From the UHGV virus genome UHGV-0876952: a DNA stretch of 24,924 bases; one strand, given 5' to 3'. The notes beneath the pieces were generated by a model that was not told where the DNA came from, did no database searches, and was given only the letters and a program-made list of their open reading frames with translations. The translations under genes were made by a program, and so were the position numbers. This DNA comes from a virus. Shown in pieces: positions 12,134 to 12,166 of the stretch; within the stretch, counting starts at the first letter, position 1; every line of letters starts with the position of its first letter.

Positions 12134-12166
12134 AATGATTCCATACATAGTAGGTATGGAATCATT
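12134..12166. other. perfect 13-bp inverted repeat with 7-bp spacer (AATGATTCCATAC-ATAGTAG-GTATGGAATCATT); candidate recombinase core site
   Basis: Read directly; about 100 bp upstream of the recombinase start. The 13-7-13 architecture matches lox/FRT-type tyrosine recombinase targets. Confidence 0.5.

Follow-up and report, generated by a model that had tools for sequence, protein, structure and literature searches.

The 24,924-nucleotide stretch analysed here (the window) is taken from the virus genome UHGV-0876952 and forms part of an SSU5/pHCM2-like Escherichia coli phage-plasmid. It encodes a tyrosine recombinase and carries, upstream of that gene, the inverted repeat AATGATTCCATAC-ATAGTAG-GTATGGAATCATT (12134-12166), which is in all likelihood the crossover site of the neighbouring enzyme. 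As judged from sequence comparison across the family, recombinase and repeat very probably constitute a simple pair in the style of Cre/loxP. Hundreds of enterobacterial phage-plasmids and megaplasmids carry it, each in a single copy. The main role of this lox/FRT-like system is probably the resolution of plasmid multimers, with the exchange of cargo between replicons as a by-product.

The repeat consists of two perfect 13-bp inverted arms around a 7-bp spacer and its near edge lies 98 bp upstream of the recombinase ATG; on both points the sequence reads as an earlier note on this DNA had described it, the distance having been put at about 100 bp. It is the only perfect inverted repeat of at least 13 bp with a spacer of 3-11 bp in the window, against a mean of 0.002 in 500 shuffles, and chance is therefore excluded as its origin. 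The asymmetry that had been ascribed to the spacer is confined to positions 1, 4 and 7, which alone set the polarity of the site. Positions 2/6 and 3/5 are self-complementary, making the spacer quasi-palindromic, and for this reason the repeat search reports arms of 16 nt that are 94% complementary and lie 1 nt apart.

The family was compared over 65 genomic loci with homologues of the recombinase and three annotated phage relatives. A site of the same design is present at all 61 loci with a full-length homologue (43-99% amino acid identity), exactly once at each and always upstream of the start codon, and Cyrano, PhiR41_1 and pJN2-26 likewise carry exactly one upstream site. This answers in the affirmative whether related elements conserve the site, a check that the earlier note had called for. 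The arms are perfect at 57 of the 61 loci and contain one or two mismatches at the other four; the spacer is 7 bp long in all 66 sites, with T and A at positions 2 and 6 almost everywhere in the family. The arrangement falls within the bounds of two inverted elements of 11-14 bp around an asymmetric spacer of 6-8 bp.

Among the 63 distinct sites the two arms agree symmetrically in 96.7% of cells, compared with 25-37% in controls in which the partner column was slid. Of the 13 arm positions, seven are constant and four change in both arms. An 11-bp core, TGAYTCCAKAC, is either invariant or symmetrically co-varying, and the symmetry reaches position 13. Changes of the G-U type are absent from this core. 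The arm type follows the protein clade, being TGATTCCATAC at 57% or more identity to the window protein and TGACTCCAGAC at 52% or less, and the clades are told apart by two internal arm changes (T·A to G·C and T·A to C·G). This pattern is the one expected of two identical protein-binding elements and indicates that selection acts on the arm sequence and not on pairing alone. The repeat seems to belong to the recombinase gene and to nothing else, since the flanks of the sites cannot be aligned across the family and no gene family was found to be co-conserved beside the pair at the family loci.

Two Chimaeribacter strains, C. californicus 2015-Iso6 (loci L008 and L055) and C. arupi 2016-Iso3 (L009 and L057), harbour two paralogous systems, one of each clade, on separate contigs, one with TGATTCCATAC arms and the other with hybrid, imperfect arms (TGACGCCAGAC ... 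GTATGGAGTCA). Differing arms are what co-resident replicons need against fusion. The 11-bp arm core also occurs within the recombinase gene at some loci (L003 at 3485, L004-L006 at 4607, L198 (pHCM2) at 14737 and L199 (pMT1) at 14808), where it encodes a conserved V-W-N-Q motif whose counterpart in the window lies at about 11418-11429. PhiR41_1, which is near-identical to the window across the recombinase gene, has one mismatch at this in-gene core, and the match may be a coincidence reinforced by coding constraint.

The complete 33-mer was found in 252 of 5,426 complete E. coli genomes, once in each and always on a plasmid, with no full site on any of the chromosomes. The TGACTCCAGAC clade is represented by 99 PLSDB plasmid records with 101 places in total, all of which are typed as non-mobilizable; they comprise megaplasmids of Pantoea (270-610 kb) and Rahnella (510-570 kb) as well as plasmids of Erwinia and others, and in them the pair stands among ordinary metabolic genes. 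Small complete plasmids of 29 kb and 50 kb also contain exactly one site each. The complete records that bear the site are plasmids without exception, and a single site on each plasmid replicon is the arrangement seen in multimer-resolution systems. A chromosomal attB with split attL and attR junctions was not found: the site is intact at all 61 loci, the search for split chromosomal junctions not having been exhaustive.

The recombinase belongs to a family of at least 152 members from the Enterobacterales. Besides the phage-integrase catalytic domain, Pfam places a central core-binding domain below threshold and finds no match to the arm-binding domain PF13356, the N-terminal hallmark of heterobivalent integrases. 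The single NCBIfam match is a weak one to PRK09692, a P4/CP4-57-type integrase, over model positions 137-393, and a search of PDB sequences with the single protein (phmmer) or with the family profile returned nothing useful. The AlphaFold (AF2) model (mean predicted local distance difference test score, pLDDT, 81) is helical over its first ~70 residues, for which no arm-binding family was matched. In Foldseek it is closest to lambda Int (1z1b, E=1e-6, lambda Int residues 75-356), followed by Tn1549 Int and then Xer and IntI, with Cre far behind (E about 0.04, rank 39th or lower); by neither fold nor sequence is it nearer to Cre than to other tyrosine recombinases. The motifs ARRPDE (ARR185PDE), RNKS (K211) and RDLRR (R281-x-x-R284) and the residue Y316 are invariant among 19 diverse members (alignment A1), and position 307 is H or Q. 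With residues assigned by motif in this alignment, the catalytic domain has the Arg-Lys-(His/Arg)-Arg-(His/Trp)-Tyr set of simple tyrosine recombinases. The next relatives, below about 35% identity, are integrases that do have PF13356, those of the P4/CP4-57 type being the closest outside the family. The enzyme is therefore best described as a derivative of a P4/lambda-type integrase that lost its arm-binding domain, and not as a Cre homologue. As in simple systems, neither an arm-binding domain nor arm-type accessory sites are apparent, judging from Pfam, the PRK09692 match and the unfixed orientation of the spacer.

Exchange of DNA at the site is suggested by comparisons of close relatives, whose alignments to the window end no more than two bases from the distal arm's outer edge (12165-12168). 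Escherichia phage CMS-2020a is 98% identical to the window over 12 kb to the left and breaks off at 12167, PhiR41_1 breaks off at 12166 and has unrelated cargo in place of window positions 12167-17551, and Cyrano and five Klebsiella elements diverge at the same edge. Salmonella Typhi pHCM2 and Yersinia pestis pMT1 share 93% identity starting with the distal arm's first base and are unrelated ahead of it. The coordinates concerned are 14001 of L198 (pHCM2) and 8314-14103 of L199 (Y. pestis CO92 pMT1), and homology begins in the same way in about 270 further plasmids of Enterobacter, Citrobacter, Salmonella, Cronobacter and E. coli. The other end of the replaced segments, where visible, falls within a conserved gene, either that for ligase or that for glutaredoxin, in the latter case at its 3' end. 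It fits these data that one site-specific crossover took place at the repeat and one homologous crossover elsewhere, a two-crossover model that we infer from the boundaries.

The slot beyond the arm is empty in the window and in the plasmid of E. coli 3385, and filled differently in other relatives: a hypothetical gene and a YafO-family toxin gene in an Enterobacter plasmid, copies of the insertion sequence (IS) IS3 in a Cronobacter plasmid, a gadW-like regulator in PhiR41_1 and small unknown genes elsewhere. In pMT1 it holds the F1 capsule operon caf1R-caf1M-caf1A-caf1, behind which lie IS elements and the genes for phospholipase D (murine toxin). In Cyrano the moron gene CYRAN_43 (locus L001, 4504-5058) stands directly beside the site, and since it is expressed 723-fold above the local prophage background in Cyrano lysogens (PMC9928086), there may be a strong outward promoter at or next to the site in this phage.

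Between the repeat and the recombinase gene lies a sequence that we take, from its hexamers, to be the promoter of the recombinase. It scores 8/12, under the scan threshold of 9/12, so that the scan does not report it and it was read directly from the sequence. Its -10 hexamer is abutted by a candidate LexA box whose CTGT-N8-ACAG core is the single occurrence of that pattern in the window. Boxes at the same offset (+56 from the site), with diverged internal bases, are found in the window, Cyrano, PhiR41_1, Klebsiella pJN2-26, Y. pestis and Kluyvera; overall the box appears to lie over the promoter and to be kept in orthologues at seven loci from four genera. It is absent from loci of the megaplasmid clade. 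Because the conserved box abuts the candidate -10 hexamer and Cyrano is induced by genotoxic stress (PMC9928086), SOS control of the recombinase is predicted for the SSU5-like clade.

The 13-mer arm has five matches in the window, where 0.07 would be expected, and three of these are lone half-sites followed by ATC, named A, B and C, which are all oriented towards the full site. Half-sites A and B form a perfect 20-bp inverted repeat (6104-6123 and 15868-15887) that brackets the recombinase over 9.7 kb. No further copy of arm plus ATC occurs in the 108-kb genome of CMS-2020a. Orthologous copies of all three are conserved in Klebsiella pJN2-26 and S. Typhi pHCM2. pMT1 retains only half-site A, in dnaE, because the region bearing B and C was replaced, and PhiR41_1 has likewise lost half-site C with its replaced region, the replacement segment carrying a lone arm of its own. 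No half-sites were found in plasmids of the other clade (the complete plasmids of 29 kb and 50 kb). A degenerate second arm is not present at the half-sites (0-4 of 13 matches by eye), their 'spacers' do not match the spacer of the full site, and they have no match to the sigma-70 consensus that would make them promoters. Recombination of a half-site with the full site or with another half-site also found no support, two deletion junctions and one inversion junction being absent from 194 matching plasmids. Half-sites B and C enclose a 1-kb segment that is conserved and not variable. The lone half-sites may be regulatory sites bound by Int.

The orientation of the spacer relative to the gene is of the TTAATAG type in 46 sites and reversed in 18. 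Spacers occur as exact reverse complements of each other (TTAATAG/CTATTAA and ATAGTAG/CTACTAT), for example in L002 compared with the window or in L044 and L064 compared with L051, and no intermediate forms were found family-wide. Among the 18 reversed sites a distal flank motif is kept in place in eight and mirrored in six. That the orientation is not fixed, with some reversals leaving the distal motif in place, argues against orientation-dependent accessory sites and is consistent with the missing arm-binding domain. Frequent flipping within the E. coli lineage was dismissed, no reversal being present among 208 RefSeq plasmids; the flipped site of PhiR41_1 accompanies a replaced flank and flips are evident at deeper divergence only. 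Candidates for the origin of the reversals are template switching between the perfect arms and rare wrong-alignment recombination allowed by the near-palindromic spacer. In the megaplasmid clade A/T-rich motifs recur at fixed distances from the site, on the distal side TCAGATTTC or TATTTTTC at ~20-30 bp past the arm and on the proximal side TAGAAT, TATAAC or TAAAAT at ~15-25 bp past the arm. These may serve as -10 promoter elements, or else as accessory sites or bending sites.

It is proposed that one recombinase monomer would bind each 13-bp arm and that strand exchange would take place over the 7-bp spacer, in the manner of loxP or FRT. Because the arm-binding domain has been lost, the enzyme would need no arm-type sites and would have no built-in directionality. 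With one site per replicon, recombination would return plasmid multimers to monomers and thereby serve the faithful segregation of a low-copy phage-plasmid. The same reaction between two site-bearing replicons would produce cointegrates, and a second crossover elsewhere would leave a swapped segment that begins exactly at the site, which would explain why a cargo hot spot lies beside it. In the SSU5-like clade, where the gene stands behind a LexA box, its expression would rise during the SOS response. There is precedent for such pairing, Cre-type recombinases having been successfully matched to palindromes within 1 kb of their genes (PMC10250229), and phage-plasmids are expected to carry dimer-resolution recombinases, a tyrosine recombinase being a persistent gene of the SSU5 supergroup (PMC7969092). 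The earlier note had suggested a lox/FRT-like core site on a plasmid prophage and not that of a chromosomal integrase, a view supported by the conservation, the symmetric arms, the single plasmid-only site, the breakpoints and the lack of an arm-binding domain. Its epithet 'Cre-like' does not hold for descent, the fold being of the lambda-Int/P4 kind, and applies to the probable mode of action only.

Several points weigh against a plain multimer-resolution system. A lox model does not predict three conserved lone half-sites, and conservative recombination alone cannot yield the spacer reversals seen relative to the gene. A near-palindromic spacer weakens orientation control in Cre/lox, control by LexA fits a function tied to induction no less well than one in steady-state maintenance, and other resolution systems (host XerCD, possibly serine recombinases) may act on these plasmids. 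The symmetric covariation of the arms would equally result if the repeat were a hairpin or were bound by any dimeric protein. It is conceivable, if doubtful, that the protein goes beyond resolution and is an SOS-controlled arm-less integrase whose single symmetric site is the point at which cargo enters SSU5-like phage-plasmids and is exchanged, the event that brought the caf1 region of pMT1 to its side included, and that the half-sites are functional targets of Int with a part in regulating early or replication genes or in rare programmed rearrangements. It is unlikely that repeat and half-sites are purely regulatory, the recombinase-like protein or another dimeric regulator acting through them on its own promoter as well as on early genes or replication genes. 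The site does lie in the promoter region, the megaplasmid clade has -10-like hexamers both downstream of the proximal arm, at 15-25 bp, and upstream of the distal arm, at 20-30 bp, the lone arms, unable alone to support recombination, are kept at orthologous positions in E. coli, Klebsiella and Salmonella, and none of the three tested junctions between arms was seen. However, the 13-7-13 layout with its invariant spacer length is the core geometry of tyrosine recombinases, the catalytic motifs are invariant, the sharp replacement of flanks at the arm edge indicates DNA exchange there, no regulator gene is co-conserved and the half-sites lack a sigma-70 consensus match; autoregulation and recombination are in addition compatible with each other. 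An operator for the neighbouring helix-turn-helix (HTH) 'repressor' was rejected as a general explanation, no neighbouring gene being co-conserved with the int-site pair.

Capture or rearrangement of cargo in the manner of integrons or shufflons, with the lone arms as secondary sites or scars, is distinctly improbable. The slot cargo differs between near-identical backbones, the lone arms face the full site, the PhiR41_1 replacement brings its own lone arm and LexA control parallels that of integron integrases, but the half-sites have neither a second arm nor a matching spacer, the segment between B and C is conserved, replaced segments end within the glutaredoxin gene and not at a second site, the tested junctions are absent and plasmids of the other clade do without half-sites. 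Very little probability is given to the site being an attP at which the element integrates into a chromosome or another replicon with a matching attB, although the gene is annotated as an integrase, its closest outside relatives are P4/CP4-57-type integrases, a 7-bp overlap is typical of that lineage and some homologues lie on contigs of 400-900 kb that may be of any replicon type. Against it stand the missing arm-binding domain, the perfect symmetry of a site that is intact at every locus and never split, and the plasmid location of all complete records bearing it; a chromosomal attB was looked for in the 5,426 E. coli genomes and none was found. Nothing speaks for an attP at the 3' end of a tRNA, which the earlier note had considered, since the tRNA genes here belong to the phage and lie within the variable region. 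That the repeat acts as a nucleic-acid hairpin, be it a terminator, a structure of the 5' untranslated region or a single-strand DNA signal, is barely credible. As RNA it would fold stably from either strand (-18 to -19 kcal/mol, z about -5) and the complementarity of the arms is kept, but the arm sequence itself is almost invariant beyond what pairing requires and G-U-type changes are absent from the core. A terminator or RNA element was rejected: the stem is AT-rich and not followed by a U-run on the recombinase strand, a scan of 11900-12700 reported no terminator, Rfam gave no match to the repeat and the glutaredoxin gene has a canonical terminator of its own.

Among known systems Cre/loxP of phage P1 appears to be the closest functional analogue of this recombinase/site pair, the enzyme being by descent of the P4/lambda type. 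As in Cre/loxP, and in Dre/rox, VCre/VloxP, Vika/vox and Panto/pox, a tyrosine recombinase of a plasmid prophage lies beside one palindromic site whose 13-bp arms flank an asymmetric spacer, arm-type sites are lacking, and multimer resolution and recombination between elements at the site are the expected roles. It differs in its spacer (7 bp, against 8 in loxP and 4 in rox), in its LexA box and lone half-sites, and in a recombinase that is no Cre homologue and has no sequence match to Cre. With the heterobivalent integrases of the P4/CP4-57 and lambda types, its closest relatives in sequence and fold, it shares core-binding and catalytic domains, P4-like C-terminal motifs and a 7-bp crossover region; unlike them it has no PF13356, its repeat is perfectly symmetric in place of imperfect core repeats flanked by arm sites, and its elements are plasmids with no chromosomal attB in E. 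coli. The multimer resolvers ResD/rfsF of F and host XerCD at cer and psi resemble it by layout and replicon type, with one site per plasmid, an adjoining recombinase gene and large, low-copy, non-mobilizable replicons with ParA genes; homology to them was neither tested nor found. In contrast to cer and psi, no orientation-fixed accessory sequences are evident here, as the direction of the spacer varies with respect to its flanks.

The sfx sites of the Rci shufflon of IncI plasmids have a 7-bp spacer and a single conserved arm. These one-armed sites resemble the lone half-sites, but no inversion products between half-sites occur in the 194 plasmids and one half-site lies within the essential-looking dnaE. 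The integron integrase IntI is under SOS control. Like the present enzyme, this tyrosine recombinase has a LexA box in its promoter and adjoins a site (attI) beyond which cargo varies, but attC-like cassette boundaries are not seen here, the replaced segments end in a conserved gene and the structural match to VchIntIA (E=7e-4) is weaker than that to lambda Int. A search of the accessible literature, whether by arm sequences or by the SSU5, pHCM2 and LPP-1 integrases, turned up no description of the site, and the phage-plasmid papers within reach name the gene just a persistent tyrosine recombinase or integrase. Published large-scale mining for lox-like sites used Cre-type queries and required 8-bp spacers (PMC10250229), and would for this reason have missed the present family.

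The repeat sits between two minus-strand genes, that of glutaredoxin upstream and that of the recombinase downstream (Table 1). At 98-99% identity the window matches CMS-2020a as well as over 160 plasmids of E. coli with a size of about 110 kb. It contains dnaE, CobT/CobS-like genes, ligase, primase and helicase genes, four tRNAs and a gene for a ParA-type ATPase. The earlier note had seen a ParA/ParG pair; the former is borne out, and the label ParG is unconfirmed, the adjoining small open reading frame (ORF) having no Pfam match. The CobT-like gene is split into three ORFs on the minus strand (7881-8528, 8506-8955 and 8952-9989), and forms a single coding sequence of 2.1-2.4 kb in Cyrano, PhiR41_1, pHCM2 and pMT1. 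The split (7881-9989) suggests frameshifts, due either to a pseudogene or to sequencing errors. Two longer imperfect inverted repeats lie at 14039-14116 (20 nt, 95% complementarity, 38-nt gap), beside tRNA-Ser, and at 15128-15216 (22 nt, 91% complementarity, 45-nt gap).

Table 1. Coordinates of the candidate recombination system and of neighbouring features in the window
Feature	Position	Strand	Remarks
Gene-proximal 13-bp arm AATGATTCCATAC	12134-12146		Predicted binding element of one recombinase monomer
7-bp spacer ATAGTAG	12147-12153	+ (as written)	Predicted crossover region
Gene-distal 13-bp arm GTATGGAATCATT	12154-12166		Homology to relatives breaks off at its outer edge
Tyrosine recombinase gene, 367 aa	10932-12035	-	Pfam PF00589, E=6.8e-10
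Candidate sigma-70 promoter	12081-12109	-	-35 TTGATC (12109-12104), 17-bp spacer, -10 TAATAT (12086-12081)
Candidate LexA (SOS) box TACTGTTTACTTATACAGTG	12062-12081	-	Abuts candidate -10; CTGT-N8-ACAG at 12064-12079
Lone half-site A	6104-6119 (13-mer 6104-6116)	+	Arm plus ATC, in dnaE codons ~82-89 (...SMRCMESLE...), non-coding strand
Lone half-site C	14861-14876 (13-mer 14864-14876)	-	Arm plus ATC, ~200 bp upstream of tRNA array
Lone half-site B	15872-15887 (13-mer 15875-15887)	-	Arm plus ATC, over start codon of 50-aa ORF
50-aa ORF MIPYIS...	15734-15886		Start codon overlapped by half-site B
HTH 'repressor' gene	10551-10937		Neighbour of recombinase gene
Glutaredoxin gene	12246-12491	-	Upstream neighbour of repeat
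Intrinsic terminator of glutaredoxin gene	12220-12243		Canonical
ParA-type ATPase gene	24128-24796	-	Part of the gene content of the window

The recombinase/site pair described here provides a concrete, testable function and a target for the persistent 'integrase' of the SSU5/pHCM2/pMT1 supergroup and of the megaplasmids of Pantoea, Rahnella and Erwinia. Outside the Cre lineage it would constitute a recombinase/site family of natural origin. The target of this family spans 33 bp, and its two natural specificities, found together in one cell, are candidates for orthogonal genome-engineering tools. One boundary of a cargo hot spot, in which defence, toxin, moron and IS genes and, in pMT1, the F1 capsule operon are located, is fixed to a single base, and this offers a mechanistic hypothesis for how related phage-plasmids may trade their cargo region. 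The candidate LexA box would in turn tie the expression of the recombinase to the same SOS response that also induces these phages.
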